Positions 2,946 through 21,409 of a stretch of DNA of 64,000 nt are shown one piece after another. The notes below the pieces were generated by a model that made no database searches, was not told where the DNA came from, and saw nothing but the letters and a program-made list of their open reading frames with translations. Every line of letters begins with the position of its first letter. The first letter of the stretch is position 1. The stretch is from assembly GCA_002435745.1 (NCBI GenBank), contig DIWT01000004.1, positions 19,096 through 83,095 of the forward strand, given 5' to 3'. Source of the stretch: a bacterium UBP15_UBA6099 (GTDB taxonomy: Bacteria; UBP15; UBA6099). A program made the translations under genes and the position numbers.

Positions 2946-3773
2946 ATGTCTGTCGTAAACACCAACATTTCCGGTCTGATAGGACTGAACAATCTGAGGC
3001 TGACAAACCTCGGATTGCAGACGTCGCTTGAAAGGCTGTCGTCGGGGCTGAGAATCAATCACGCCTCGGACGACCCCAGCGGTCTTGCCATCGCCAAGGG
3101 GATGGAAGCGCAGATAGGCGGCATCCGCACCGCCGTGCAGAACGCCGAGGACGGGATCAACCTGATCCGCACCGCCGACGGCTCTCTGAGCGAGACGCAC
3201 GACATCCTGCTTAGGATGCGAGACCTCGCGGTGCGCGCGGCCAACGAAGCCACGCTCACTCCCGCGGATCTCAACAGGCTTCACAACGAGTTTGTAAGCC
3301 TGATCGCGGAGATCGACCGCAAGTCGGATGCCGTCACTTTCAACACGAAAGTTCTGTTCGACGGCACTTTCGCAGGAGGAGAGGTGCTTCAGGTCGGCCC
3401 GGACAACGGCGCTACTTTCCAACTAACCGTGTCCATTCCTGACCTTGATTCAACAGGGCTGGGGATCAACGCCGCGTCGCTGTCGCAGGTGGCAAACGCC
3501 CAAGCCGCCATCGACTCTGTCAACAGCGCCATCAACCAGATATCCGACGTGCGCGCGAACCTCGGCATACAGGAACGCCGCCTCGGCCACATCATCGACG
3601 ACCTGAAAGCGGCCGATATAAACATCTCCGCCGCCAAGAGCCGCATCTACGACGCGGACATGGCAGTCGAGATAAGCGAGTTCACCCGCCTGCAGATACT
3701 CCAGCAGAGCGGCACGGCGATACTCGCTCAGGCCAATGCGCAGCCTCAGAGCGTGCTGCAACTTCTGAAATAA
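2946..3773 (+). CDS. Flagellin (275 aa), paralogue 1
   Basis: Conserved flagellin N-terminus (LERLSSGLRINHASDDPSGLAIA) and C-terminus (DADMAVEISEFTRLQILQQSGTAILAQANAQPQSVLQLL). SD and ATG are present. Confidence 0.95.
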   Translation: MSVVNTNISGLIGLNNLRLTNLGLQTSLERLSSGLRINHASDDPSGLAIAKGMEAQIGGIRTAVQNAEDGINLIRTADGSLSETHDILLRMRDLAVRAANEATLTPADLNRLHNEFVSLIAEIDRKSDAVTFNTKVLFDGTFAGGEVLQVGPDNGATFQLTVSIPDLDSTGLGINAASLSQVANAQAAIDSVNSAINQISDVRANLGIQERRLGHIIDDLKAADINISAAKSRIYDADMAVEISEFTRLQILQQSGTAILAQANAQPQSVLQLLK

Positions 3774-3985: not shown

Positions 3986-4813
3986 ATGTCGGTAGTAAAC
4001 ACAAACATTTCCGGTCTGATAGGGCTGAACAACCTGAGGCTGACCAACCTCGGGTTGCAGACATCTTTGGAGAGGCTTTCGTCCGGGCTGAGGATAAATC
4101 ACGCGTCGGACGACCCCAGCGGACTTGCTATAGCAAAGGGCATGGAGGCGCAGATCGGCGGCATCCGCACCGCCGTGCAGAACGCCGAGGACGGGATTAA
4201 CCTGATCCGAACGGCAGACGGCTCGCTCAGCGAAACGCAGGACATCCTTTTCAGGATGCGCGACCTCGCGGTGCGAGCGGCAAACGAGGCCACGCTCACT
4301 TCGGCGGACCTGACGAGGCTCAACAACGAGTTCAACAGCCTCATGGACGAAATTGATCGCAAGTCGGACGCCGTTACGTTTAACACCAAGGGGCTGTTCG
4401 ACGGCACTTTCGCAGCAGGACAGGTCCTTCAGGTCGGCCCTGACAACGGAGCCACTTTCCAGTTGACTGTGTCCATCCCCGATCTCGACGCCGCCGGACT
4501 CGGAATCAATACGGCTTCTGTGGGAGTGGTGGCAAACGCTCAGTCGGCGATCGACTACATAAACAGCGCGATCAATCAAGTGTCCGACGTGCGCGCCAAT
4601 CTAGGCATTCAGGAACGCCGCCTCGGCCACATCATCGACGACCTGAAAGCCGCAGACATCAACATCTCCGCCGCCAAGAGCCGCATCTACGACGCGGACA
4701 TGGCAGTCGAGATAAGCGAGTTCACCCGCCTGCAGATACTGCAGCAGAGCGGCACGGCGATACTCGCTCAGGCAAACGCTCAGCCGCAGAGCGTGTTGCA
4801 ACTGCTTCAGTAG
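3986..4813 (+). CDS. Flagellin (275 aa), paralogue 2
   Basis: Same conserved termini as paralogue 1; ends LLQ instead of LLK. Confidence 0.95.
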   Translation: MSVVNTNISGLIGLNNLRLTNLGLQTSLERLSSGLRINHASDDPSGLAIAKGMEAQIGGIRTAVQNAEDGINLIRTADGSLSETQDILFRMRDLAVRAANEATLTSADLTRLNNEFNSLMDEIDRKSDAVTFNTKGLFDGTFAAGQVLQVGPDNGATFQLTVSIPDLDAAGLGINTASVGVVANAQSAIDYINSAINQVSDVRANLGIQERRLGHIIDDLKAADINISAAKSRIYDADMAVEISEFTRLQILQQSGTAILAQANAQPQSVLQLLQ

Positions 4814-5029: not shown

Positions 5030-5857
5030 ATGTCGGTAGTAAACACAAACATTTCCGGTCTGATAGGACTGAACAATCTGAGGCTGACGAACCTCGGATT
5101 GCAGACGTCGCTTGAAAGGCTGTCGTCGGGGCTGAGAATCAATCACGCCTCAGACGACCCCAGCGGACTTGCCATCGCCAAAGGGATGGAGGCGCAGATC
5201 GGCGGCATCCGCACAGCAGTGCAGAACGCCGAGGACGGGATCAACCTGATCCGCACCGCCGACGGCTCTCTGAGCGAGACGCACGACATCCTGATGAGGA
5301 TGCGAGACCTCGCGGTGCGCGCGGCTAACGAGGCAACGCTCACATCCGCCGACCTGACGAGGCTCAACAACGAGTTCAACAGCCTCATGGCCGAGATCGA
5401 CCGCAAGTCGGACGCCGTCACGTTCAACACGAAAGTTCTGTTTGACGGCACGTTTTCCGCCGGACAGGTGCTTCAGATCGGTCCGGACAACGGAGCCACT
5501 TTCCAGTTGACCGTGCAGATTAACGACCTCGATTCCACAGGTCTCGGAATCAACACGGCTTCAGTGGGAGTGGTCGCAAACGCCCAGTCGGCGATCGACT
5601 ACATCAACAGCGCCATCAACCAGATATCCGACGTGCGCGCGAACCTCGGCATACAGGAACGCCGCCTCGGCCACATCATCGACGACCTGAAAGCGGCCGA
5701 TATAAACATCTCCGCCGCCAAGAGCCGCATCTACGACGCGGACATGGCAGTCGAGATAAGCGAGTTCACCCGCCTGCAGATACTCCAGCAGAGCGGCACG
5801 GCGATACTCGCTCAGGCAAACGCTCAGCCGCAGAGCGTGCTCCAGCTTCTTAAGTAA
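5030..5857 (+). CDS. Flagellin (275 aa), paralogue 3 (mosaic of 1 and 2)
   Basis: Same conserved termini. The central residues alternate between paralogue-1-like and paralogue-2-like blocks. Confidence 0.95.
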   Translation: MSVVNTNISGLIGLNNLRLTNLGLQTSLERLSSGLRINHASDDPSGLAIAKGMEAQIGGIRTAVQNAEDGINLIRTADGSLSETHDILMRMRDLAVRAANEATLTSADLTRLNNEFNSLMAEIDRKSDAVTFNTKVLFDGTFSAGQVLQIGPDNGATFQLTVQINDLDSTGLGINTASVGVVANAQSAIDYINSAINQISDVRANLGIQERRLGHIIDDLKAADINISAAKSRIYDADMAVEISEFTRLQILQQSGTAILAQANAQPQSVLQLLK

Positions 5858-5942: not shown

Positions 5943-7898
5943 TTATCTTTCGTTCACTGCGAATTGAAGCCCTTTGAGACGTTTGCGGAGCGCCGCCATC
6001 TGGCGCGCGTGCGCCTCCGAACAGTTTATCTTTATGTCCGCGCCTTTGCGGGAAAGAGATTCGAGCATCCTGCCGAATGCCTCAGAATCCAGACGCGCCA
6101 AAGGCGCAAGGTTTATGTGAACAGCCTTGACGGCTATCTTCTTTTCGTTGAGCGTGTTAATCAGTCTGCGCATGGTTTTCTCTTTTACAGAGCCGCGAAG
6201 GTAAACCGAAAGCTCCGCCTCTCCGCCTCTGTTTTCGAGGAAAGCCCATGCTTTGCGGAGTTTAAGGAGGGCAGTGGCGCGGGCGGCGGAACACGCGGCG
6301 GCGGCGACCTCAGCCGGCTCCATCCTGAACCGGGTGACTATCGCTCGCGGGTTGTGGGGATGGAACTCCCTCTCGTATCTCATCCGCGCCGCGCTCGCCA
6401 TGAGCCAGACCGCCGAGTTGGCTATGAAATGCGCCGGGTTTCGCGCCCCGAACTTTTCGGCGAACATCGCCTCTATGCGTTCAGCTTTCTCTTTCATCTG
6501 TTTTTCCGGGGCGAGCCATTTAAGGGCGGTCAGCGCGTGACGGTATGCTTTGCATCTGCGAACGGCGGTTTCATATCTCGCCGCCATCATCGGGTCTCCG
6601 CTCTTGTAATGAGGGGAATTCAGCCCCTGAATCATGGCCTCGCCGACCCTGAGTATGGACGGGCCAAGCTCGCGGAACTCGCGGGCGAACGCTTCTTTAG
6701 TCGTCACCGCGCTTTCCTCCCGCGTGAAGTGCGGGTGCTTGAACCACAGCATGTGTTGCCCGTGCCATTCCTCATACGGCACGTCGTCCAGCAGTAGCCC
6801 TTGCTCCTTGTATTCGAGGTAGAGTCTAGTCTGCGGCAGGGGGCCGAGCTGCATGAACTGCGTGAAGTCCGGCTTCAGGCTTATCGCGAAATCGATGTCC
6901 TCGTTGATGCTCTCTTTGTCGTGATGTTCAAGGAAAAGGATGGACGATGCCAGCACGAATATCCCGTTCGCGCGGAGTTCGGCGATGAGCGCCTGAACGT
7001 CGATTCCTTTGGTTTTCTCGAACAGGTTCCGCTTGGACTCGACGCCTATCCACACGTAGTTGACGCCCAGCGCCATCATGTTGTCCACGCCGAACGCCGT
7101 TATCGCCTCTGCGGACGAGAAAACGCTGAAGTTGAACGGCCGGTTGTGCTCGCGCATGAGCGCCAGCAGTTCCATCGCTCTGTCTTTGTGAAGGAGAAAG
7201 TTCTCGTCCATCACGAAGAAGTCGTTTGTCTTAAGCTCGTCCGCGAGCCGCACGCACACGTCGAATATGTCTTTGCCCGTTTTCAGGAACGGGGTGTATT
7301 CCTTGTCGTAGAAGTGGGACGTGCAGCAGAACCGGCAGGCGTTCGGGCAGCCAACGCCGGGCACTAGCACCGCGCCCTGTTGCGTGAACGGAAGCCCGAG
7401 AATCCTTTTGTGGTCCGCGGCGGGCATCGCCGGGTGCTTTATCGGCGCGTTCATGTCCTCTCCCAGCAGATTCCTCAGCTTGCTGATTCCCTCTCCGGGC
7501 AGAACATGGTCGCAGTCGATCAAAGTCTCGATGTCGGGGATTCTCGAACCGTGGCCTCCGAGGATTATTTTCGTCTGCGGCGAAACCTCTCTGATTATCT
7601 CCGCCATCCTTCGCGCTTTCACGAAGTTCGGGGCGATGAAGGAAATGCCCACGTAGTCGTAGCCTTTGGCAAGCTCCTTGCGAAACTGTTTTATCGATGG
7701 GAAGTCGAGCACAGTGGTGGGAGTGGACAGGTTCTCCGCGATGAAATAGAGGCCGAAACTCCTGTGATTGTATCTGAGCGAGAAAATGCCTTGCTCGCGG
7801 GTCACCTGATTGTGGAACAGTTCGAGTTTATTTTCCTTGCGGCCATAGGCGTCGTCTACGCCGAACGGCCTGAATACCGATGTAAGCAGTAATTTCAT
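5943..7898 (-). CDS. B12-binding-domain radical SAM protein with a ~180-aa C-terminal extension (STAS-like?)
   Basis: The N-terminal region has a cobalamin-binding-like pattern (YDYVGISFIAPNF...KIILGGHG), followed by the radical SAM cluster motif GVGCPNACRFCC (CxxxCxxC). Total length is 651 aa. Confidence 0.8.
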   Translation of the reverse strand: MKLLLTSVFRPFGVDDAYGRKENKLELFHNQVTREQGIFSLRYNHRSFGLYFIAENLSTPTTVLDFPSIKQFRKELAKGYDYVGISFIAPNFVKARRMAEIIREVSPQTKIILGGHGSRIPDIETLIDCDHVLPGEGISKLRNLLGEDMNAPIKHPAMPAADHKRILGLPFTQQGAVLVPGVGCPNACRFCCTSHFYDKEYTPFLKTGKDIFDVCVRLADELKTNDFFVMDENFLLHKDRAMELLALMREHNRPFNFSVFSSAEAITAFGVDNMMALGVNYVWIGVESKRNLFEKTKGIDVQALIAELRANGIFVLASSILFLEHHDKESINEDIDFAISLKPDFTQFMQLGPLPQTRLYLEYKEQGLLLDDVPYEEWHGQHMLWFKHPHFTREESAVTTKEAFAREFRELGPSILRVGEAMIQGLNSPHYKSGDPMMAARYETAVRRCKAYRHALTALKWLAPEKQMKEKAERIEAMFAEKFGARNPAHFIANSAVWLMASAARMRYEREFHPHNPRAIVTRFRMEPAEVAAAACSAARATALLKLRKAWAFLENRGGEAELSVYLRGSVKEKTMRRLINTLNEKKIAVKAVHINLAPLARLDSEAFGRMLESLSRKGADIKINCSEAHARQMAALRKRLKGLQFAVNER

Positions 7899-8168: not shown

Positions 8169-8750
8169 ATGGGGAGTGTAGTTTTGAAAAAATATTCTAA
8201 AGAAAAATATGGCAATACGTTGCTTCAAATCGAAGTGTTTATACCAAAGAGATTGACAAATCTAGGTAAGCTTGTCGAACTTCTTGAAAACATGCTTGAT
8301 TTCAGAAGAGCGAAAGAAGATCTGATTTGTCGAGCAAATGAAATATTTGAGCAGACAGAATGGGGCAATGAAGGAATAAAGAATATAAAACAGGCTAAAA
8401 ATAGAATTAAACAGATAGAAAAATGCATTCATGGATATTCTATTTATGAGGTTGACGGGGCTTTCGAGACTTCATGCGACATGAAGACCAGCAAAATAAG
8501 AAAATCGGATGTGAGGATTTGTGAAGAAAGAACAATGGTTGTTAGAATGCTTGCATACGCCGATCCAACCGAGGAGGAAAAGAAGGATAACGTTGATTTT
8601 TTCAATACGAGAAGCGTTGTCGACGCGCTTTTAGTTGCAAATGAATATTTGGCATTTAAGATCGCAAGCGATGTTGCTGAGGAGGATGAGATTTGGGTAA
8701 CAGCAAGTAAAGTATGGTCAAGTATCTGGAAAAAACATAGCGATGACTAA
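8169..8750 (+). CDS. Hypothetical protein (193 aa), first gene of the AT-rich island
   Basis: This is the only long ORF in the interval, and its codon usage matches the island. No motif recognised. An alternative TTG start at 8184 lies 7 nt after GGGGAG. Confidence 0.55.
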   Translation: MGSVVLKKYSKEKYGNTLLQIEVFIPKRLTNLGKLVELLENMLDFRRAKEDLICRANEIFEQTEWGNEGIKNIKQAKNRIKQIEKCIHGYSIYEVDGAFETSCDMKTSKIRKSDVRICEERTMVVRMLAYADPTEEEKKDNVDFFNTRSVVDALLVANEYLAFKIASDVAEEDEIWVTASKVWSSIWKKHSDD

Positions 8751-8931: not shown

Positions 8932-9078
8932 ATGTTTGAGGACGATAAGGGATTGATTAACAATAATGAAATCGAAAATGATACACTGGAATTGGAATGG
9001 GAAGTTGCTGTTCCAGTTGATAGGTCAAGAGTAAGCCACATGTATTGTTTTAAAAACTGTTCCGTTAACTCTAATTAG
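8932..9078 (+). CDS. Candidate RiPP precursor peptide (48 aa), not in the supplied ORF track
   Basis: The ATG is preceded by GGGGGG with a 5-nt spacer. Translation: MFEDDKGLINNNEIENDTLELEWEVAVPVDRSRVSHMYCFKNCSVNSN. It has an acidic N-terminal half and a C-terminal CxxxC. It sits 111 nt upstream of the RRE-rSAM-SPASM gene on the same strand. Confidence 0.55.
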   Translation: MFEDDKGLINNNEIENDTLELEWEVAVPVDRSRVSHMYCFKNCSVNSN

Positions 9079-9189: not shown

Positions 9190-10503
9190 TTGTTACATCA
9201 CTCTTATGCTGTTCCTCAAAATGTATCAGTTGTTAGAAAAGACGATGTTATTTTGGTAATTAATCCACAAACAGCTAATTGGCTGGTGCTAAACGATATT
9301 GAATTAGAAGTATATTTTTTGCTCGCAGAAGGAATAACAATAAAAAAGGTCATAGAGAAGATTTCTAAAAAAAGCAACTGTAATCAACATGCCTCTTCAA
9401 TTGTCAAAAGATTTCTTGCTCAATCGGAAGCTAAACAATTCAACAAAACTGTTGGGACTGTGTTCGCAGATTCATTTGGGATGTATGTTTTTCTAACATT
9501 TGACTGCAATCTGAAGTGTAGTCACTGTTTTCTATACGATAAACCACGACTCGGAGATCCTCTTGAAATTGAACAATGGAAAAGAATACTCATTGATTTT
9601 CAGCTTGCCGGAGGAGAAAAGATAACATTATCTGGAGGGGAACCGACACTTTTTGATTCCTTTGCAGATATCCTTGTTTTTGCACATGGCATTGGATTGA
9701 AAGTGACATTATTGACAAATGGCATGATTTTGCATTCGGAACTACTAGAATTATATTCTAACAATGTAGATGAACTCCAGATTAGCCTCGATGGACCGGA
9801 AGAGATTAGTCACGAGATGATAAGGGGAAAGGGAACTTACTTTAAGACATACTCAAACATAAAAAAAGCGTTAGACAAGGGCGTTATGGTTACTATTGCC
9901 ATGACGCCAACTTTTGAGACATTTCCATTTTTCGAAGAGCATTTTGTTCGATTTGCGAAATCTTTACTTAATGAATACTCAAATGTAAATGTTAAATTGA
10001 CACAAAAGCTTCTTCGATCAAAAATGTCGATTTATTCGGATACGGATATGAATAAATATTACGCAAAAGGAAATAGACTGATTAATAATCTTTATGAGGA
10101 TTATTCCATCAATGCGTTTTATTTAGACCACCCTGTGAATACAATACGACGCAATTGTGGTTATGGCGAGATATCAGTTATTCCAGACGGAACCGTGTAT
10201 TTATGTAGTAGGATTTGTGATTTGAAACCAGTTGCAAATTTAAAGGAATTAAAAATGGTAAACGTGATACAAATTGCACGAGAGGAGAAAGAGAGGGCTT
10301 CAGTGGAGAATATCATCCCATGTCAGCATTGTTGTTTAAGGTATATCTGTTCTGGTGGTTGCAGAATAGACGACATCCCTGATTTTTGTAATGGACAATT
10401 GACTGTAGATTGTCCTGAAGAAAGGAAGCAACAAATATTTGACATGATGATAGAATCAAACAATATGTATTTCAATATAGAGTATAAACCAAATAATGAA
10501 TGA
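9190..10503 (+). CDS. Radical SAM/SPASM peptide-maturase-like enzyme with a PqqD-like (RRE) N-terminal domain
   Basis: CxxxCxxC motif (FDCNLKCSHCF) and GGEPTL. C-terminal auxiliary-cluster cysteines are present (CGYGEISVIPDGTVYLC...PCQHCCLRYICSGGC). The N-terminal ~90 aa fit the PqqD/RRE pattern (VILVINPQTANWLVLNDIELEVYFLL..GITIKKVIEKI). The start is TTG; there is no in-frame ATG upstream. Confidence 0.8.
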   Translation: MLHHSYAVPQNVSVVRKDDVILVINPQTANWLVLNDIELEVYFLLAEGITIKKVIEKISKKSNCNQHASSIVKRFLAQSEAKQFNKTVGTVFADSFGMYVFLTFDCNLKCSHCFLYDKPRLGDPLEIEQWKRILIDFQLAGGEKITLSGGEPTLFDSFADILVFAHGIGLKVTLLTNGMILHSELLELYSNNVDELQISLDGPEEISHEMIRGKGTYFKTYSNIKKALDKGVMVTIAMTPTFETFPFFEEHFVRFAKSLLNEYSNVNVKLTQKLLRSKMSIYSDTDMNKYYAKGNRLINNLYEDYSINAFYLDHPVNTIRRNCGYGEISVIPDGTVYLCSRICDLKPVANLKELKMVNVIQIAREEKERASVENIIPCQHCCLRYICSGGCRIDDIPDFCNGQLTVDCPEERKQQIFDMMIESNNMYFNIEYKPNNE

Positions 10504-12898
10504 AGAACATAAACATAAAAGCATATTAATTATATTTATAAATTGGGCTCATCAGCCTAGGATCAGGATAGTCCAGCGAACATATGCTGCTAGAAACAGC
10601 CCCTCTCCCAATGCAATAAAAGATATTGATCATATCAATCCATCATTGATTGCGCAATTTCCTGACGATCTTGACAAAAAGTTGTTGGGTTGGCTGATGG
10701 TGCCTCACAAAGCATTGCTTCCAGACCCGGTCAGGGTCAATGATATACCTGTTGGAATAATCAATGAATACATAAAGCGCAAGCGTGCCTATTATTCTCC
10801 TTCAGGAAAAAACAAATCCTTAAAAAGAATATATTCTGTAGATATTGACATCCCTAATGTTGGTGTATATTCTTGGAGTATCAATGAACGAAATCTAATT
10901 TTGAGTAGTAGTTTTATTGGCGACGATATGGTTATCATTGAGAAACATCCTATTATGATAATCTCAAGAACAGAAAACAATAATTATGTTGGTATTCCAT
11001 ACGCAAGGGTAAAACACAACGATGGTTATGTGCCTTTGTTTTCTTTTAGTAAGGAAGCGACATTAACACTGCTAAGTCAATTAATTAAATGTGCAAGATC
11101 AGAAGATTATCTTTTGTGGTATTTTCCTGACAACATGTATGAATTGTCATTATCGATTGAAACACTTATAAACGATGGTTGGGATATCGAATATGATGAC
11201 AAGAAAAGAGTTGTAAAAACGACTCGATGGAATATGAAAGCAAATGATAAAACCGATTGGTTTGAAATTGATGGAGTTGCTCAATATAATGACAGCACAT
11301 TGTCTATATCAGAAATGCTTGCGGCATTGAGAAAGAGGTCGGCTTTTGTTGCGTTAGAATCAGGGGGTATAGCGGTTCTTCCTTCAGATTGGATAAAAAA
11401 TATTATTCCAATGGAACCATATCTCTCTGCAAATATGAGAATATCCAGATCATTCGTTGGATTAATAAGTGCGTCAACAAGCATCAATTCAGAGAATAGT
11501 ATTAGTTACAAAATAGCAAGAAAACTTATCTCAGCGCAAAACAATTATGAACCGGTATTATGGGATGGTAAATGTCTGAAACCATATCAGAATTGTGCTG
11601 TAAATTGGCTTAATGAAGCATATAAACAAAACATTGGATGTCTTCTTGCGGATGAAATGGGATTGGGTAAAACCATTGTTACTCTTGCTCACCTGTCTTT
11701 ATTTAAGGGAGATCATCTTATAGTAGCTCCAGCTTCAATCATATCTAATTGGATTCATGAAATTGAAGTAAATTTACCTAACGCAATGTGGTCTCTATGG
11801 GGATCAAAAGAAGAACAATCTGATTCTTCAAGAACCAGCATATATTTAATGAGCTATCAAACCATGCTTAGAAACATAGATGCGATAACTATGAAGCGTT
11901 ATATGGTAGCAGTATTCGACGAATCACAGTATTTAAAAAACTCATTTTCGATGACGGCGAATGCAGCAAGGAAAGTTAAATGCAATCAAGCTATCGCATT
12001 AACAGGAACACCAATTGAGAATAATGTATCGGAGTTGTGGAGTCATTTGAACCTTGTTGCGCCGAATTGGCACAATAATCGAAGGAATTTTGAGACTATT
12101 TGTAGCGAAGCAACCAAGAGTGATGCCTCGTTGATTCATCTTAGAAAAGCTTTGTCTCCATTTATATTGAGAAGAACTAGAAGTGATGTTTTAAAAGATT
12201 TACCTGATTTGAATATCGAGATAATAAGATGTGAGTTGAGTGAAGACCATCTAAAGCTCTACAAAAAATGGATGATATCAGCAAGAAAGGCTTTTTCTGA
12301 CCCTGAGCATAGAACAAGAAAAAAAGGTGCGGTGTTAGAAGTGTTGTTAAGATTGAGGCAAATCTGTTGTGACCCGCTTTTGATAACACAAGACTATGAT
12401 GGTGATGTTGTTGTGTCAGGAAAAACTGAAGCAATATTAAATGCTATTATTGTGATTTCTGAATATGACAAATTATTAGTGTTTTCACAGTTTTCATCAT
12501 ATTTGGAGTTATTAAAAACCTTACTAGATAAGCATTTTGTGAATAATTTACTATTGATCGGAACTACTGGCAACAGAGATGATGTGATAAAAGAATTTAA
12601 AGAATCAGAAAACACAAATGTATTATTAGCAAGTCTTAAAGTTGGAGGCGTCGGATTGAACTTAATAGAAGCTGCTAACGTAGTATTATGTGATCCATGG
12701 TGGAATCCTGCTGCAGAGATGCAAGCATGGTCAAGAGCATATAGAATGGGGCAAAAGAAAAATGTAAATGTTATAAAATTTGTGTGTAAAAACACTATAG
12801 AAGAACGCATATTGGAGCTTCAAGAAAAAAAAGCTACACTGAATCAATTTGTGCCAGAAAAAATATCAAGCAAAGAAATTATTGAATTATTGAAATAA
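10496..12898 (+). CDS. SNF2-family ATPase/helicase (800 aa) with an uncharacterised ~350-aa N-terminal region
   Basis: SNF2_N motifs (LKPYQ, LLADEMGLGKT, DESQYLKN, ALTGTPIENN) and helicase-C motifs (SLKVGGVGLNL, DPWWNPAAEMQAWSRAYRMGQ). The ATG overlaps the rSAM stop by 8 nt (ATGAATGA). Confidence 0.9.
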   Translation: MNEEHKHKSILIIFINWAHQPRIRIVQRTYAARNSPSPNAIKDIDHINPSLIAQFPDDLDKKLLGWLMVPHKALLPDPVRVNDIPVGIINEYIKRKRAYYSPSGKNKSLKRIYSVDIDIPNVGVYSWSINERNLILSSSFIGDDMVIIEKHPIMIISRTENNNYVGIPYARVKHNDGYVPLFSFSKEATLTLLSQLIKCARSEDYLLWYFPDNMYELSLSIETLINDGWDIEYDDKKRVVKTTRWNMKANDKTDWFEIDGVAQYNDSTLSISEMLAALRKRSAFVALESGGIAVLPSDWIKNIIPMEPYLSANMRISRSFVGLISASTSINSENSISYKIARKLISAQNNYEPVLWDGKCLKPYQNCAVNWLNEAYKQNIGCLLADEMGLGKTIVTLAHLSLFKGDHLIVAPASIISNWIHEIEVNLPNAMWSLWGSKEEQSDSSRTSIYLMSYQTMLRNIDAITMKRYMVAVFDESQYLKNSFSMTANAARKVKCNQAIALTGTPIENNVSELWSHLNLVAPNWHNNRRNFETICSEATKSDASLIHLRKALSPFILRRTRSDVLKDLPDLNIEIIRCELSEDHLKLYKKWMISARKAFSDPEHRTRKKGAVLEVLLRLRQICCDPLLITQDYDGDVVVSGKTEAILNAIIVISEYDKLLVFSQFSSYLELLKTLLDKHFVNNLLLIGTTGNRDDVIKEFKESENTNVLLASLKVGGVGLNLIEAANVVLCDPWWNPAAEMQAWSRAYRMGQKKNVNVIKFVCKNTIEERILELQEKKATLNQFVPEKISSKEIIELLK

Positions 12899-15913: not shown

Positions 15914-18484
15914 TCATTTATTAATTGACATGTTATAAAAAACACGACTGTCCTCGGCGCTTAGCACAGTATCGTAAAGGCCGATGTCTTCGCCTTCGTG
16001 CTTATTGACGCCTATATAAATTAGACTGGAATCTTCGTATCGTTTAAACTTATAGACAGCGTCATTCATCAATGCGCTATTGAATACTCCAAGGCTTACC
16101 AACAACTCGAACTCTTTCATAGTCAGGCCGGTTACTTTCTTGAACAAACCCGGCTCCAGTTGCGTGATGACATCCTTCAGACATCGCTCTCGATAATCGG
16201 TCAAATACATAAAGATTGGCAAACGCGTGGCGAACTTGATAAGTTTTTCCTGAATCTGCTTCCGCAAGCTTTTGTATTCCTTTTCCTCCTCGGTGAGCTT
16301 CTTCTTTTCCTTTGTGGAAAGCTCTTTGTCATTTGCTTCCTTTCTCGCCTTTTTCACGGCTTCCGACTTGTTGATAATAGTCTCGATGTCCTGATTGAGG
16401 TTGCGAAAGCCTTCAATTCTCATTAGCGCATCCATAGCGGCTTTGTTGCTCATGAGCCGTTTCAGGGCTTCGTTATCCACATTAACCAGCAAAGCGCTTT
16501 CCCAGCGCCTCGCCAAAAGAGTTGCTGTAGTTCCACTCATCGCCATATCCAGAATGCCTGCGGCATTGATCTCTTTCATTGAACTGCCGTCATAGGCTAA
16601 CACTGGAAGAAAGTTTATAAACTCCGCCACCTTCTTTTCGGGATTGGACTCATCGACATTCAGTCGGCAACTGTAATCGGCGATCTGCCGCAAAGCTCTG
16701 TCCGGCGCGAAATCAAAGACATAGCATTCCTCTTTAATGATTTGCTCCCGATTCGGCGCTGTGTTGTCGGGATTCCTGATTGACCAAGGTGATTGCACGC
16801 GGAAAGCAGCCTGAAAATAGGTCTCGGGACTGGACGAATTCCGCAACATGAGGATGCCGGTCCACGGCCTTACCGTGACTCCTGTGGTCAGTTTGCCGCA
16901 TGACAGGGTAATTGTTTTGGTTGCTAAGGGATCGTCCATGGCCTCCTGCACGGGCGGCAAAGCGGCAACGCCAATACCGGCGTCGCTTCCCGCCGCAACG
17001 ATTACTTCGTAATCGCGATAGAACTTATTCTGTTTCTTCGCCATAAGGTTGCGCATTGCGTGACACGAGGCAACACTGGGCAGAAACCAGAAGGTGTGCG
17101 ATAAAACATTCAGTAATCGCGCATCGGAAAACGGCATCGGCGGTTTTTGAGCGCCCAGTTTCAAGTTGTCAATATTTGTTGCCGAGAATGAGCCGCGTAT
17201 CAAATCAAGCCACTTCTGCACTTCATCCGTGTACGTAAATTTCGCCTTGTTTCCCGCCCCGGTAGCGGAAAAAAAAGTGTTAAGATCGAACTCATTGAAC
17301 TCGCCCTGCATGGCGATTTCGCGTATCGAATCGGGCAGTTGATAGGTCATTAACACCATTCGAGGAAGCGCCGCGTATGGATTGTCCCCGCCTGTCCATT
17401 CCTGCTTGGCCCGCTGCTCGTCCGAATACGTCCAGTTAAAAATCTGCTCCTCGATGAATTCGCCGGACGCAATGGCCCTAAACGGCGTGCCGGATAGATA
17501 GAGATATGCATTCGTGGTAATCGGCATAATCTCTTCGTCAAAATCCTCAATGCCGGCGCCTTCTCCAAACTCGATTTCTTTCTTGTCCTCCGCCGCAAAA
17601 AGCTCTCTGGCGTTTTCGCGCCACGCGCCGTAGTGATACTCGTCAAGGATGACACAATCCCAGTTGGTCTCATGCGCCCATTCATTCTTGGTCTTGAGCC
17701 CCCCGGTGCTTTTGTTCTTGCCAAGGTGATCCTGAAAAGAACCGAAACAGACGAAAGGCTTCTTCTTGTCCGCGTCTTCGTATGATAAACCGCCCGGCGA
17801 GATAAACTGCCACCCTTTGAAATCAATATGGCATTTCAAGTCTTCTTCCCATGCGTTCTGCACTGCGGGCTTGAAGGTCAGCACAAGAACCTTGCGCCAG
17901 TCCATTTTCTTAGCGAGCTGATAGGCGGCAAAGGTTTTGCCAAAGCGCATTTTAGCGTTCCATAGAAAGCGCGGCGACTTATCCTTGTTTTCCTTTCTGA
18001 AACTCTTGAAATAAGCGACGGTCTTTTCCACCGCCGCTTCCTGTTCCGGTCGCATCTTGAAATCAAGCGAACGGTTTTCCTCGTTCATTTCACCAGTTCT
18101 CAGAGCAATGACCGCCGCTTTTACCTGTTTTGCCGAACATTTGAACCATTCCCCTTTGGGATTTTTGACGCCGATGGCTCGTAAGCGACGGTGAACATCA
18201 TGGTCGGTGAAGACCGTGCCGTCATTGCGCATTGCGAATTCTTCAAGGACGATCCGATACGGCGGTTTTCCCGGCCTCAATGTCGGATATTGCTGTTCCA
18301 CGCGCGTCCGGGCGTCCGCTAATGTATAGCCGACTTTGAGCAATCCCGCGTATTGAGGATTTGTGTCCTCGTAGGCGTAGATGGTCGGTTTGGAATCCGG
18401 CCGCTGAGGGAAGAAATTATCAGGTTTCCTCGGCATTGTTTCCCAGCTTCTTTTTAGTTTTTGCGGGCGGAAGAAAGTTGTCAC
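15914..18484 (-). CDS. GIY-YIG (T5orf172-like) nuclease domain fused to an SF2 DEAD/DEAH-box helicase (putative restriction subunit)
   Basis: The N-terminus fits the GIY-YIG/T5orf172 pattern (TIYAYED...GLLKVGYT...R..Q...HDVHRRL...GEWFKC). Walker A is MRFGKTFAA and motif II is LDEYHYG. A more likely start is the ATG at 18436. Confidence 0.75.
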   Translation of the reverse strand: MTTFFRPQKLKRSWETMPRKPDNFFPQRPDSKPTIYAYEDTNPQYAGLLKVGYTLADARTRVEQQYPTLRPGKPPYRIVLEEFAMRNDGTVFTDHDVHRRLRAIGVKNPKGEWFKCSAKQVKAAVIALRTGEMNEENRSLDFKMRPEQEAAVEKTVAYFKSFRKENKDKSPRFLWNAKMRFGKTFAAYQLAKKMDWRKVLVLTFKPAVQNAWEEDLKCHIDFKGWQFISPGGLSYEDADKKKPFVCFGSFQDHLGKNKSTGGLKTKNEWAHETNWDCVILDEYHYGAWRENARELFAAEDKKEIEFGEGAGIEDFDEEIMPITTNAYLYLSGTPFRAIASGEFIEEQIFNWTYSDEQRAKQEWTGGDNPYAALPRMVLMTYQLPDSIREIAMQGEFNEFDLNTFFSATGAGNKAKFTYTDEVQKWLDLIRGSFSATNIDNLKLGAQKPPMPFSDARLLNVLSHTFWFLPSVASCHAMRNLMAKKQNKFYRDYEVIVAAGSDAGIGVAALPPVQEAMDDPLATKTITLSCGKLTTGVTVRPWTGILMLRNSSSPETYFQAAFRVQSPWSIRNPDNTAPNREQIIKEECYVFDFAPDRALRQIADYSCRLNVDESNPEKKVAEFINFLPVLAYDGSSMKEINAAGILDMAMSGTTATLLARRWESALLVNVDNEALKRLMSNKAAMDALMRIEGFRNLNQDIETIINKSEAVKKARKEANDKELSTKEKKKLTEEEKEYKSLRKQIQEKLIKFATRLPIFMYLTDYRERCLKDVITQLEPGLFKKVTGLTMKEFELLVSLGVFNSALMNDAVYKFKRYEDSSLIYIGVNKHEGEDIGLYDTVLSAEDSRVFYNMSINK

Positions 18485-19280
18485 CGGTCACCACGCCGCG
18501 TCCGGTTTTCCGCTCCAGTTCCAGCCTCGCCTTTTTTGCGATTCTTCCGCCTTTTCTGCCCGCCTGCGCATTTTCATCCATGCCGGTTGCTTCAACGCTC
18601 TCCGCAATCTGGCGGGTGGAAAGCTCCGCTAAAGCTGTAAAAATCAGTTCCGCCTCGCTCATGTGGTCGCGTAGGTTTTGAGTTTTGAGGTCCTTTATCT
18701 GCTTGTGTTTCTTGACCGAAACCCCGCTCCATTCTTTGTGAATTATATTGGTCAGAATGGCGTATTCGTCTTCGCCTTTAATCTCGTGGTCTTTCCAGTA
18801 ATCGGTGAGTTTATTGCGGGTTTCCTGCCCCATCATCCGCTGCTGAATCCATTTTTCGCTTCTGCCGCTCTGTTGCCAGTAGTCGCGCGCCCGGTCAAGG
18901 GATCGGGCCGGATCGCTCATGTCCTGAATGCGCTCGTAACCCGCTTTGGCAAGCCATAGCTTGATGGGTTCCGCTCTGGGACTGGGAACCGACTGTATGA
19001 TTCGCAGAAGAGCCTCCGGGCCGGCCGCGTCGGTCAGGTATTTTTTCCCGTCAGCGGCTTCCATTTTCAGTTGGTGACAATTTGTCACCGACTGATTTCC
19101 CTCTTTCTTGAGGCGTTCTTTCAACTTGTTCCAGTACTTCCGGGCAGTCTGATAATCCGGCTGCTGAATCAGCGCGGCGATGATATCCACAACGGAAAAC
19201 AACCATGTTTCTGTCTTTTCATCATAAATCCTGCGGATTTTAAAGTTTTCAAAAACCGCAAGCGCCTTTTCTTCATTCAT
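18420..19280 (-). CDS. Bro-N / DinD-like (DNA-damage-inducible protein D family) protein
   Basis: The N-terminal pattern FENFKIRRIYDEKTETWLFSVVDIIAAL and the overall 286-aa layout match my recollection of this family. It overlaps both neighbouring genes. Confidence 0.55.
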   Translation of the reverse strand: MNEEKALAVFENFKIRRIYDEKTETWLFSVVDIIAALIQQPDYQTARKYWNKLKERLKKEGNQSVTNCHQLKMEAADGKKYLTDAAGPEALLRIIQSVPSPRAEPIKLWLAKAGYERIQDMSDPARSLDRARDYWQQSGRSEKWIQQRMMGQETRNKLTDYWKDHEIKGEDEYAILTNIIHKEWSGVSVKKHKQIKDLKTQNLRDHMSEAELIFTALAELSTRQIAESVEATGMDENAQAGRKGGRIAKKARLELERKTGRGVVTGDNFLPPAKTKKKLGNNAEET

Positions 19281-20781
19281 TGTTAATCTCCATCGGTCGA
19301 ACTATTAAGTCAATAAAATCAATTTCGTCGTCTGACAAACCAAAATGAGCGAAGAGTTTTTCGTCTGTCCATATTTTTGACATAGGCAGAAGAGGCACAA
19401 ATGAAAATTTGTCCTTTGTGTTGTCCTGTGTGTTTTTGCGTAAGCCCACCAGAAACCGCAGAAACTTTGTTCTAAGATATTTGTCCAGATTTTTTGCGGC
19501 GCTTTCGGTTTCATAAGCTCCAACTACAATGTAGGTCTCGGTGCAAGCGCTGGATGGAGGCGCTATAATCGGCTTGCCCATTATCATTCGTGGATAATCG
19601 CGAGCTTCACCTCCTTCCCCGTATGCCTTAGAAATTAGAACCTTCCACAAATCCAGCAACTCCATTCCATTTTTGATGTCCGATTTTTCTATCCATCCGA
19701 CAGTTTTTGTTGCATACAATTTAATGTTGCCTTTTCCAGTAGGCCGGACAAATGTCGGGAGCCCAAATGGTTTTCGACTATAGATTTGTTCACTTATTGA
19801 TGTGTATTTCTTTTCTTTTACCTTTTCGAGAATCGAAATAGCCTTATTGAATCGAACAAATGAATCAAATTGATCCAAAGAGCGCTTCATCGTATCATCC
19901 ATGCCACTCATGCGTGTAGTTACTTCACATTGACCGCTGTAATCCCGCTCCCATAAAAAATAACATACACCGCCAATCACCTTGACGCCGGGGAAAACAT
20001 CAGATGCTATTGGATAGTCAACCAAATGAGAGATTCTGCGATCCTTTAGCATTGTATCGCGAAAAACATCCAGCCCTTTCCCACCGGCAAACCATCGGGA
20101 TGGGATAATCATTGACAAATATCTCGGTTCAAGTTTTTTAGCTTGTTCGACAAAATTGTGATAAATAGGAGATGAGCCTGTGCTATCTCCAGCATCACTC
20201 AACTGATACGGTGGATTACCTATAATTACATCAAATTTCATATTGAATATCGCCTCCGGATTTTCCGTGTGAATAAATTGATAGGCATGGGTTTCGAGTT
20301 CTTCGCCCCGCTCATAGCTTTCCTGACTGGCGCCGCAGAAAACGCAGCGCCCGTTTTCCCATGTGTGCTCCACTCGCTCAAAGCGAATATTCCCTTGCGG
20401 GTCGTCGAAAGTTTCACAGACGGAGTATTTTCCATTGGCCGTTTTGGAGCAGTAAACAGAACGGCGGGAAAGCAACGCGGTCAACTCAGTTATTGCCACG
20501 CCGAAGATCTGGTTCTTGAAGATGTGGTTGATTCGAGCCTGCCTGTCCGGGATTTTTTTTTCAAGCCCCGCATCCAACCGCCTTGCGATTTCGCGCGGAA
20601 ACACACCGGACTTACAGAACGGATCGAGAAACCGGGTGTTCTTATTGCCCCAGATTTCCGGAGGCAGCAAATCCAATATTTGATTAACCAATTGCGGCGG
20701 CGTGAACACTTCGTCGCTGCTCAGATTGGCCAGACAGGTCAGCACATCCGGGTTGTAGCTATTGCCTGTCAACATCGGCAA
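19273..20781 (-). CDS. Eco57I-type N6-adenine DNA methyltransferase
   Basis: AdoMet motif LDPFCKSGVF and catalytic motif IIGNPPYQ. The downstream pattern SPIYHNFVEQA...IIPSRWFAGGKGLD is typical of this family. Confidence 0.8.
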   Translation of the reverse strand: MPMLTGNSYNPDVLTCLANLSSDEVFTPPQLVNQILDLLPPEIWGNKNTRFLDPFCKSGVFPREIARRLDAGLEKKIPDRQARINHIFKNQIFGVAITELTALLSRRSVYCSKTANGKYSVCETFDDPQGNIRFERVEHTWENGRCVFCGASQESYERGEELETHAYQFIHTENPEAIFNMKFDVIIGNPPYQLSDAGDSTGSSPIYHNFVEQAKKLEPRYLSMIIPSRWFAGGKGLDVFRDTMLKDRRISHLVDYPIASDVFPGVKVIGGVCYFLWERDYSGQCEVTTRMSGMDDTMKRSLDQFDSFVRFNKAISILEKVKEKKYTSISEQIYSRKPFGLPTFVRPTGKGNIKLYATKTVGWIEKSDIKNGMELLDLWKVLISKAYGEGGEARDYPRMIMGKPIIAPPSSACTETYIVVGAYETESAAKNLDKYLRTKFLRFLVGLRKNTQDNTKDKFSFVPLLPMSKIWTDEKLFAHFGLSDDEIDFIDLIVRPMEINNE

Positions 20782-21409
20782 CCTCCAGAAAGTGCGTTAA
20801 CGGGTACTCTTTCACAGGCTCATTTAAGTATGCCTCGTTATTCTCATCGCTGAATATCATTAGTTGGTGTTGCTTGTCTACTAGAAACGAAAGCATGAAA
20901 TCGCGCCGCTTTAGCATGCTACCGTTGACCGGCGACCATTCAGAAAATATAATCGGTCGCGGATTGTTTCCCACGGTTTTCAGATCAAGCGCGTCTCCAT
21001 GAATAATATTGCGCTCAAGGATATATTTGACCGCATTCCGACATTCATTCCTTGCGCCGAATATAAAAAGGCGCGTGTAGTTCAGATCAAAGATGTCAAA
21101 AAGCCGGTTGCGACATTCCTGAACATTATCCTTAAGAATATCAATGCCGTATATGGAGGACACGGCAAGAACAGCATTCCTCTCGTACTCCAGTTGAATC
21201 TTTTCGTATCGGAATTCAACGACGCGCAATTTCCGTTCCAGAATTTCCGACAGAAAATTGCCCGTGCCGCATGCGGGTTCAAGAAACCGGGATTCGATCC
21301 TTTCTGTTTCCTGTTTCACCAGATCAAGCATGGCGTTGACTTCTCGTTTTCCAGTCAATACCTCGCCATGATCAGCGACCCTCTTCTTGGAGACAACTTG
21401 CTTTTCCAT
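20759..21409 (-). CDS. Short methyltransferase-like protein (AdoMet-binding motifs only, no NPPY)
   Basis: HGEVLTGKREVNAMLDLV (motif X-like), EPACGTGNFL (motif I), YGIDI and HGDAL are present. No (N/D)PP(Y/F) is found in the 216 aa. The gene overlaps the downstream MTase by 23 nt. Confidence 0.55.
   Translation of the reverse strand: MEKQVVSKKRVADHGEVLTGKREVNAMLDLVKQETERIESRFLEPACGTGNFLSEILERKLRVVEFRYEKIQLEYERNAVLAVSSIYGIDILKDNVQECRNRLFDIFDLNYTRLFIFGARNECRNAVKYILERNIIHGDALDLKTVGNNPRPIIFSEWSPVNGSMLKRRDFMLSFLVDKQHQLMIFSDENNEAYLNEPVKEYPLTHFLEVADVDRQ

Follow-up and report, generated by a model that had tools for sequence, protein, structure and literature searches.

A probable SWIM-less SNF2_assoc-type accessory module in a bacterial SNF2 ATPase encoded beside a radical-SAM maturase and a small peptide

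The 64,000-nucleotide (nt) stretch of DNA analyzed here (the window; contig DIWT01000004.1 of the bacterium UBP15_UBA6099, GenBank assembly GCA_002435745.1) encodes an 800-amino-acid (aa) SNF2-family ATPase, and we examined the region that precedes its motor, residues 1–355 (10496–11560). Sequence comparison indicates that this region is very probably a shortened, SWIM-less accessory module of the SNF2_assoc type and not a new domain. The original prediction, made from the sequence alone, had regarded the region as uncharacterized; it is novel only in part, since homology to the N-terminal module of canonical SNF2_assoc helicases covers two of the three parts into which we divide it. The short form is found solely beside a gene pair for a radical S-adenosylmethionine (rSAM) enzyme and a small peptide. 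As the best explanation overall, to which we give a probability of roughly one half, we propose that a SWIM-less module of this kind belongs to a SNF2 motor switched by the peptide.

Library searches with residues 1–355 were nearly empty. The Pfam search gave Lipocalin_3 alone, at a non-credible E of 0.064, NCBIfam and PHROGs gave nothing and PDB sequences gave nothing above noise, which agrees with the earlier remark that residues 1–350 carry no motif that can be named. PDB sequence and profile searches started from the N-terminus, from a canonical N-terminus and from a 24-sequence alignment of trimmed sequences (A3) also returned nothing real. As had been read from the letters, nuclease, SWIM and methyltransferase motifs are absent: the corresponding models matched neither the 800-aa protein nor any of its six orthologues. 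The SWIM finger itself (CxCxnCxH; PF04434) was found in none of the seven SNF2 proteins, and residues 1–355 hold a single cysteine, C199.

To place the region, we ran an exhaustive phmmer search of residues 1–355 against 1.84 billion cluster representatives. Besides the query protein, it returned a single full-length relative (P0002; 803 aa, 27% identity across residues 22–354, E 4e-23) and about 320 proteins that matched residues ~200–340 alone. These partial matches sit directly before the SNF2 domain of proteins of ~1,050–1,130 aa, several of which bear an N-terminal SWIM finger and, at the matched place, the PF08455 SNF2_assoc domain. In P0004 and P0005, for example, PF08455 (33.5 and 49.4 bits) lies where the proteins align to query residues 195–326 and 221–309, respectively. 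A profile built from 75 such N-termini matched residues 213–328 with an E of 3e-30 (hmmsearch), and residues ~206–345, hereafter N3, aligned to the C-terminal half of the SNF2_assoc region with an hhalign probability of 99.3% (E 1.5e-20). The counterpart of N3 in PF08455 members occupies profile positions about 254–367 of 373, directly before the SNF2 domain. The Pfam PF08455 model (gathering threshold 27 bits) did not match the 800-aa protein at E up to 1, nor the six orthologues at E up to 0.01. The segment TDWFEIDGVAQYNDSTLSISEMLAALRKRSAFVALESGGIAVLPSDW, which corresponds to residues 253–299 (T253–W299; window 11252–11392, + strand), bears the family core motif DWFE...G..LP..W; its resemblance to the 'SNF2 helicase associated' domain had been noted in the original prediction, and transitive homology through the profile shows this to be right. 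A scan of genome contigs with the N-terminal alignment retrieved relatives at the SNF2_assoc level alone. One further candidate homologue, the 3,546-aa protein P0003, was rejected, its E of 4e-16 to residues 77–114 being inflated by 15 tandem-repeat matches.

The homology appears to extend beyond N3. The whole N-terminus is collinear with canonical profile positions 143–623, all of them beyond the SWIM finger (hhalign probability 99.1%), and the alignment starts at canonical position 143–166. When the N-terminal 205 residues were compared alone, residues ~17–104 matched the post-SWIM segment, whose family pattern is ..Y.ld...l.l.l..r....G.wg..k.....i...pd..Dr.il.lL ... lLp.L..TGRl.., with a P of 8.7e-5 from a 2-sequence profile. 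With five sequences, the same residues gave a P of 2.5e-6 and a probability of 89%, against P values of 0.43–0.58 for reversed controls. Probabilities for this post-SWIM comparison were 60–89% overall, from shallow profiles of 2–7 sequences. The stretch between the two matched parts measures ~190 residues, compared to ~300 in canonical proteins, and is thus ~110 residues shorter.

These comparisons and a structural model divide the protein as follows.

10496–10825 (+): N1, residues 1–110; basic (pI 9.9), a predicted three-strand beta meander plus helices
10826–11110 (+): N2, residues 111–205; variable, beta-rich middle, the least conserved part
11111–11530 (+): N3, residues 206–345; predicted alpha/beta domain with PF08455-type homology, then a linker helix into ATPase lobe 1
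11576–12850 (+): SNF2 motor, residues 361–785; motifs intact

The AlphaFold2 model computed from A3, an alignment that is shallow over N1 and N2, reached a mean predicted local distance difference test score (pLDDT) of 75 and a predicted template modelling score (pTM) of 0.61. N3 was modelled best, with pLDDT of 86–96 for residues 211–320, and a linker helix at residues 336–347 leads from it to the motor. N1 scored ~70–87, on its shallow alignment, and the beta-rich N2 fell below 50 at residues 119–149. A single-sequence model of the whole protein (pLDDT 33) was of no use, and Foldseek found no match in PDB or BFVD at E <= 1e-3.

Among the seven orthologues, mean pairwise identity is 26% in N1, 19% in N2 and 27% in N3, compared to 45% in the motor, so that the N-terminal module evolves about twice as fast as the motor. 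Between 318 and 365 residues precede the motor, and N-terminal identity ranges from 15 to 52%. N1 is basic in six of the seven proteins (pI 9.2–10.5) and carries the clade motif RxY.ARNSPSP...FPD..D..LL...LPDP. Nine N-terminal residues are invariant in all seven proteins, W229, W255 and F256 among them, and a core clade of five members keeps 39 invariant N-terminal positions and has no frameshifts. Across the 24-sequence alignment, which includes canonical proteins, the invariant residues are W229, D254, W255, F256, L287 and G290.

The motor is intact. Pfam assigned SNF2-rel_dom (PF00176) to residues 364–627 with 180.5 bits (gathering threshold 24.9) and Helicase_C (PF00271) to residues 645–752 with 56 bits (threshold 23.5), and the nearest PDB sequence to the protein is the Sulfolobus Rad54-like 1z63 (E 2e-62). 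LKPYQ lies at residues 361–365, GLGKT at 389–393 and DESQ at 475–478, followed by TGTPIEN and QAWSRAYRMGQ, in agreement with the start of the SNF2 motifs predicted near residue 355. GLGKT, DESQ, TGTPIEN and QAWSRAYRMGQ are kept in all seven SNF2 proteins. By these motifs, the protein is a SNF2-family ATPase whose motor motifs I, II, III and VI are intact.

The gene lies at the end of an island of 35% G+C, at ~8.0–12.9 kb of the window, set in DNA of ~57% G+C. Four open reading frames (ORFs) lie on the island, all in one direction:

8169–8750 (+): 193-aa ORF, outside the conserved module
8932–9078 (+): precursor peptide, 48 aa, with the C-terminal core YCFKxCxxNxN-stop at 9043–9078
9190–10503 (+): rSAM/SPASM peptide maturase, 437 aa
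10496–12898 (+): SNF2-family ATPase, 800 aa, with an 8-nt overlap between its start and the rSAM stop

We searched with two rSAMs, that of the window and that of the P0002 locus, which returned a graded series. All rSAMs at E <= 1e-83 that could be placed on contigs gave seven distinct loci (the window, L007, L016, L017–19, L020, L021/22 and L027); not all rSAM clusters could be placed. Every one of the seven has the same order: a gene for a 35–67 aa peptide, the rSAM gene and a gene for a SNF2 protein of 768–813 aa; the rSAM and SNF2 genes overlap by up to 17 nt or lie up to 6 nt apart. On the 7.2-kb contig of P0002 (L007), an integrase gene, a 67-aa ORF, a 445-aa rSAM and the SNF2 gene are found; this rSAM is 36% identical to that of the window, and the SNF2 gene overlaps it by 4 nt. 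Three remoter rSAMs (E 1e-66 to 1e-44) have no SNF2 gene beside them; one of these (L025) adjoins an MFS transporter and an M16 peptidase, and another (L028) a HEPN/nucleotidyltransferase pair. Canonical SWIM-SNF2 genes had an rSAM neighbor in none of six loci. These results show that the SWIM-less short form occurs solely beside the rSAM/peptide pair (seven of seven loci) and defines a small SNF2 clade. The system is rare: at 50% identity, just two clusters came out of the exhaustive N-terminus search, and in the rSAM search about 20 clusters (90% identity) reached E <= 1e-74.

The partner enzyme is a bona fide rSAM/SPASM enzyme by its sequence. It matches PF04055 with 79 bits and carries the CxxxCxxC motif as C106/C110/C113, and these three cysteines together with C323, C339, C378, C381, C387, C391 and C408 are invariant in all seven orthologues. 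An N-terminal stretch is also kept in the seven (P9, W31, V33, L34), and we read it as a putative PqqD-like recognition element for ribosomally synthesized and post-translationally modified peptides (RiPPs). The best NCBIfam match is StsB-like (110 bits against a cut-off of 625), and the cut-off of no maturase family was reached. In the JGI assembly 3300001567 (L003:3559-4778), the same rSAM gene is split into ORFs of 234 and 151 aa and the peptide ORF is uncalled, owing either to a mistake in assembly or to disruption of this copy.

The peptides, 35–67 aa long, all end in the core YCFKxCxxNxN-stop, which is invariant, and their leaders share a less strict motif, W...D.SR..H/A-M. Each of the seven SNF2-linked loci has exactly one copy of the core motif, directly before the rSAM gene, and the motif was absent from the other loci examined. 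The notion that an acidic leader acts as a DNA mimic was dropped, as the net charge of the peptides spans −8 to +4. The 193-aa protein had been put forward as another interaction partner of the N-terminus. It matched no family, it has no homologue in the six other loci, and the length called for its ORF varies between assemblies of identical DNA (71, 188 or 193 aa). The absence of homologues and the disagreement of gene callers make it implausible as a core partner; it is cargo or an accessory.

The seven loci sit on low-G+C or mobile, defence-type DNA. The module is lower in G+C than its flanks in the window, L007, L017 and L021. Its neighbors include an integrase (L007), AbiEii and MqsR/MqsA (L017), and a type IV secretion system coupling protein, NERD and an antitoxin (L021). 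In L027, the SNF2 stop is followed after 2 nt by the gene of an 897-aa RdrB-like adenosine deaminase (L027:11639-14332, +; PADLOC RdrB E 3e-32, partial match) and then by MazE/PemK genes; the deaminase may be an added effector. Beside the core module, no exporter, leader peptidase or immunity gene was found in any of the seven SNF2-linked loci. A metagenome scan with a 2-sequence rSAM alignment, which makes for poor patterns, gave one unrelated rSAM alone.

The peptide gene also occurs by itself in phages. A degenerate DNA pattern that represents the peptide core, and does not include the leader motif, matched 16 loci in IMG/VR (L029–L044), 14 of which encode short ORFs that also bear the leader motif, in the form ..W..D..R[IV][GT]AMYCFKxCxxNxN-stop. 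Their neighbors are phage genes, among them those for scaffold and capsid proteins, DnaB and a NUMOD3 endonuclease, and within the fetched stretches, which are parts of contigs, neither an rSAM nor a SNF2 gene was present. The peptide gene of L027 (L027:7834-7941) is 75–89% identical at the nucleotide level to four phage copies, solely across the 107-nt ORF. IMG/VR yielded no complete module, and a viral scan with a 7-sequence rSAM profile gave one related rSAM (L045, E 1e-62), with neither peptide nor SNF2. The phage orphans may serve as decoys or as an anti-defence device, or the peptide may have originated from them. In one phage locus, a 302-aa CxxxCxxC protein (weak Radical_SAM match, E 0.008) and a 107-aa Cys-rich ORF (L030:1644-2895, +) lie just upstream of the orphan peptide and may form a small phage-borne maturase.

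When compared with known systems, the 800-aa protein is closest to the canonical SWIM/SNF2_assoc (PF08455)/SNF2 helicases (~1,050–1,130 aa; P0004, P0005), from which it appears to descend and whose manner of working it would share. It has in common with them N3 with its DWFE...LP..W core, the linker into the motor and, probably, a collinear N1 segment, and their motors are the nearest in sequence. It differs in its length (800 aa versus ~1,060), in the absence of the SWIM part (profile positions 1 to ~150), in a middle shorter by ~110 residues and in its genetic setting, being always beside an rSAM and a peptide gene, whereas canonical genes stand alone. Two named NCBIfam families matched residues 360–785, NF053675 ('pilus expression-regulating Snf2 family helicase') with 303 bits against a cut-off of 1100 and NF058637 ('SCO1167/SCO6262 family helicase') with 281 bits against 1200.

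With the SNF2 ATPases of defence systems (DpdE of Dpd, ZorD of Zorya, DrmD of DISARM, BrxHI/HII of BREX), the protein shares a SNF2 motor and a location on DNA of the mobile or defence type. Among PADLOC models, DpdE (E 2e-89) and ZorD (E 6e-81) matched best, covering the motor, and four of the DpdE models also cover N3 (residues 228–350). None of these identities could be assigned. For DpdE, NF041062 scored 33.6 bits against 500, and there are no dpd neighbors in the window or the six other loci. For ZorD, NF041790 scored 171 bits against 1500 over the motor alone, with no Mrr-like or other nuclease domain and no zor partners. For DrmD, NF038318 and NF038317 scored 61.8 against 950 and 31.9 against 610, respectively, and DISARM neighbors are absent from the window and the six loci. 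Unlike BREX, the locus has no brx partner genes, its partners being the rSAM and the peptide. RapA is another SNF2 motor of bacteria, and its N-terminal accessory region, made of several domains, is comparable in size; NF003426 scored 29.2 bits against a cut-off of 576, over residues 382–482 of the motor alone, residues 1–355 show no similarity to RapA, and the context is not that of a housekeeping gene. A match to such a family in contexts unrelated to rSAM genes had been named as the outcome that would speak against the earlier reading; the relatives without an rSAM neighbor are instead the canonical helicases, which are longer and differ in architecture.

The other two genes resemble rSAM/SPASM RiPP systems with C-terminal Cys cores, namely the sactipeptides (StsB, SkfB, AlbA) and the ranthipeptides (PapB). 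Cys-Asn beta-thioethers (NxxcB) represent a further rSAM RiPP class with such a core. Alike are the maturase with its short precursor, the invariant precursor residues (two Cys and two Asn at the C-terminus) and the rSAM N-terminal stretch that looks like a recognition element; different are the lack of a protease, exporter or immunity gene and the obligate coupling to a DNA motor. The closest parallel comes from prokaryotic conflict systems, within which an rSAM-SPASM enzyme with a small peptide has been described (Kaur, Burroughs, Iyer and Aravind 2020; PMC7159879). The modules of that study differ from the present one: they accompany VMAP/FtsH ternary systems and have other peptide motifs (FxSxx), and no SNF2 partner of the present kind is described. 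Literature searches on rSAM with SNF2, SPASM with SNF2, PF08455 and the peptide motif retrieved no description of the module or of the motif. We conclude that the N-terminal region is a variant of a known accessory module, within a system that is apparently undescribed.

In other SNF2 enzymes, flanking domains gate the motor and select its substrate, as do AutoN/NegC of ISWI, the chromodomains of Chd1 and the N-terminal domains of RapA and Mfd. By analogy, N1–N3 may hold the ATPase off or target it: the basic N1 would contact nucleic acid, N3 would pack against lobe 1, and N2/N3 would receive the signal. RiPP chemistry suggests that the rSAM enzyme could link C39/C43 of the peptide to the invariant N46/N48 as thioethers of the sactipeptide or ranthipeptide type, within an 11-residue tail. 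As neither an exporter nor a leader peptidase belongs to the module, the modified peptide would stay in the cell, where it may, directly or via the rSAM enzyme, switch the SNF2 translocase in a conflict system directed against phages or mobile genetic elements. That the N-terminal module itself reads the modified peptide as its signal, with the triad as a conflict system and the phage peptides as decoys, is speculative and we consider it rather doubtful. The most specific form of the idea seems unlikely to us; here, the triad would be a defence system in which the cross-linked peptide is an allosteric ligand of the DNA translocase, read through the SWIM-less module, possibly by an ACT-like sub-domain, and the phage orphans would be decoys that counter or exploit it.

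The original prediction had cast the region as a specificity or sensor module. What stands of it is a non-catalytic accessory region that diverges about twice as fast as the motor and whose SWIM-less form keeps company solely with the rSAM/peptide pair; what does not stand is its complete novelty. Weighing against a role in reading the peptide, W229, W255 and F256 are also fixed in canonical relatives that have no peptide, and no clade-specific pocket is evident. The principal alternative has a real though smaller chance of being correct: the N-terminus would keep the canonical functions of DNA or substrate recognition and autoregulation and never touch the peptide, the peptide and rSAM being separate (a toxin, signal or cofactor) or the SNF2 protein binding the rSAM by another surface. 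Such a conserved function leaves unexplained why SWIM loss and the shortening of the middle are tied to the rSAM/peptide pair (seven of seven loci, compared to none of six for canonical genes), and why the N-terminus diverges so fast within the clade.

It is also conceivable, though quite improbable, that the locus is an ordinary RiPP cluster in which the SNF2 protein is a transcriptional regulator or an immunity factor and its N-terminus targets promoters or RNA polymerase. The rSAM is indeed most like the sactipeptide and ranthipeptide maturases StsB, SkfB and PapB, its remoter relatives lack SNF2 and in L025 have the transporter and peptidase of a classical RiPP context, and one related SNF2 family is named for pilus expression. 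However, scores for the named NCBIfam families are far under their cut-offs, none of the seven SNF2-linked modules has the exporter, leader peptidase or immunity gene of such a cluster, and the contexts are of the mobile or defence type, with the peptide gene alone in phage genomes. Finally, the loss of the SWIM finger and of ~110 middle residues, together with the poor conservation and poor modelling of N2, might be taken to mean that the N-terminus is a functionless, decaying remnant of a truncated canonical helicase. This we regard as very improbable: length (318–365 residues) and architecture are kept in seven orthologues that are 15–52% identical here, the five-member core clade has 39 invariant positions and no frameshifts, and pLDDT in N3 exceeds 90.

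A SWIM-less module on a peptide-switched SNF2 motor, the explanation we prefer, would be of interest for several reasons. For the N-terminal module of the SNF2_assoc helicases, a large bacterial family, our PDB searches found no solved structure. The present clade offers a minimal version of that module, with no SWIM finger and a short middle, and with defined genetic partners, which makes its role testable. In the literature searched, we found no case of a DNA motor obligately paired with a RiPP-type maturase and its peptide. Should the peptide regulate the motor, phage defence and the chemistry of RiPPs would be linked in a new way, and a route to studying the switching of bacterial SNF2 motors would open. 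If the reading as a defence system with an allosteric ligand were true, this would be the first RiPP-type peptide to serve as an internal regulator of a SNF2 motor.

Neither flanking direct repeats nor a tRNA were found at the island borders, and the island has no match in E. coli genome or plasmid collections. Promoter and terminator scans of its AT-rich stretch gave about what is expected from shuffled sequence (31 promoter-like sites compared to 21.0 ± 4.9). Upstream of the island are three 275-aa flagellin genes in tandem (2946–3773, 3986–4813 and 5030–5857, all +), and its left side is adjoined by the gene of a 651-aa B12-binding rSAM protein (5943–7898, −), which has host-like G+C and is unrelated to the SPASM maturase of the island. 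A second foreign-looking block of ~48–49% G+C lies 3 kb downstream (15914–21409, −). It encodes a T5orf172/GIY-YIG-like protein fused to a ResIII helicase (type IIG REase_MTase model, E 3e-30), a Bro-N protein that matches the PADLOC candidate PDC-S13 (E 3.5e-115) and pieces of an Eco57I/MmeI-type methyltransferase. From these matches, the block looks like a split defence cluster resembling type IIG restriction-modification systems.

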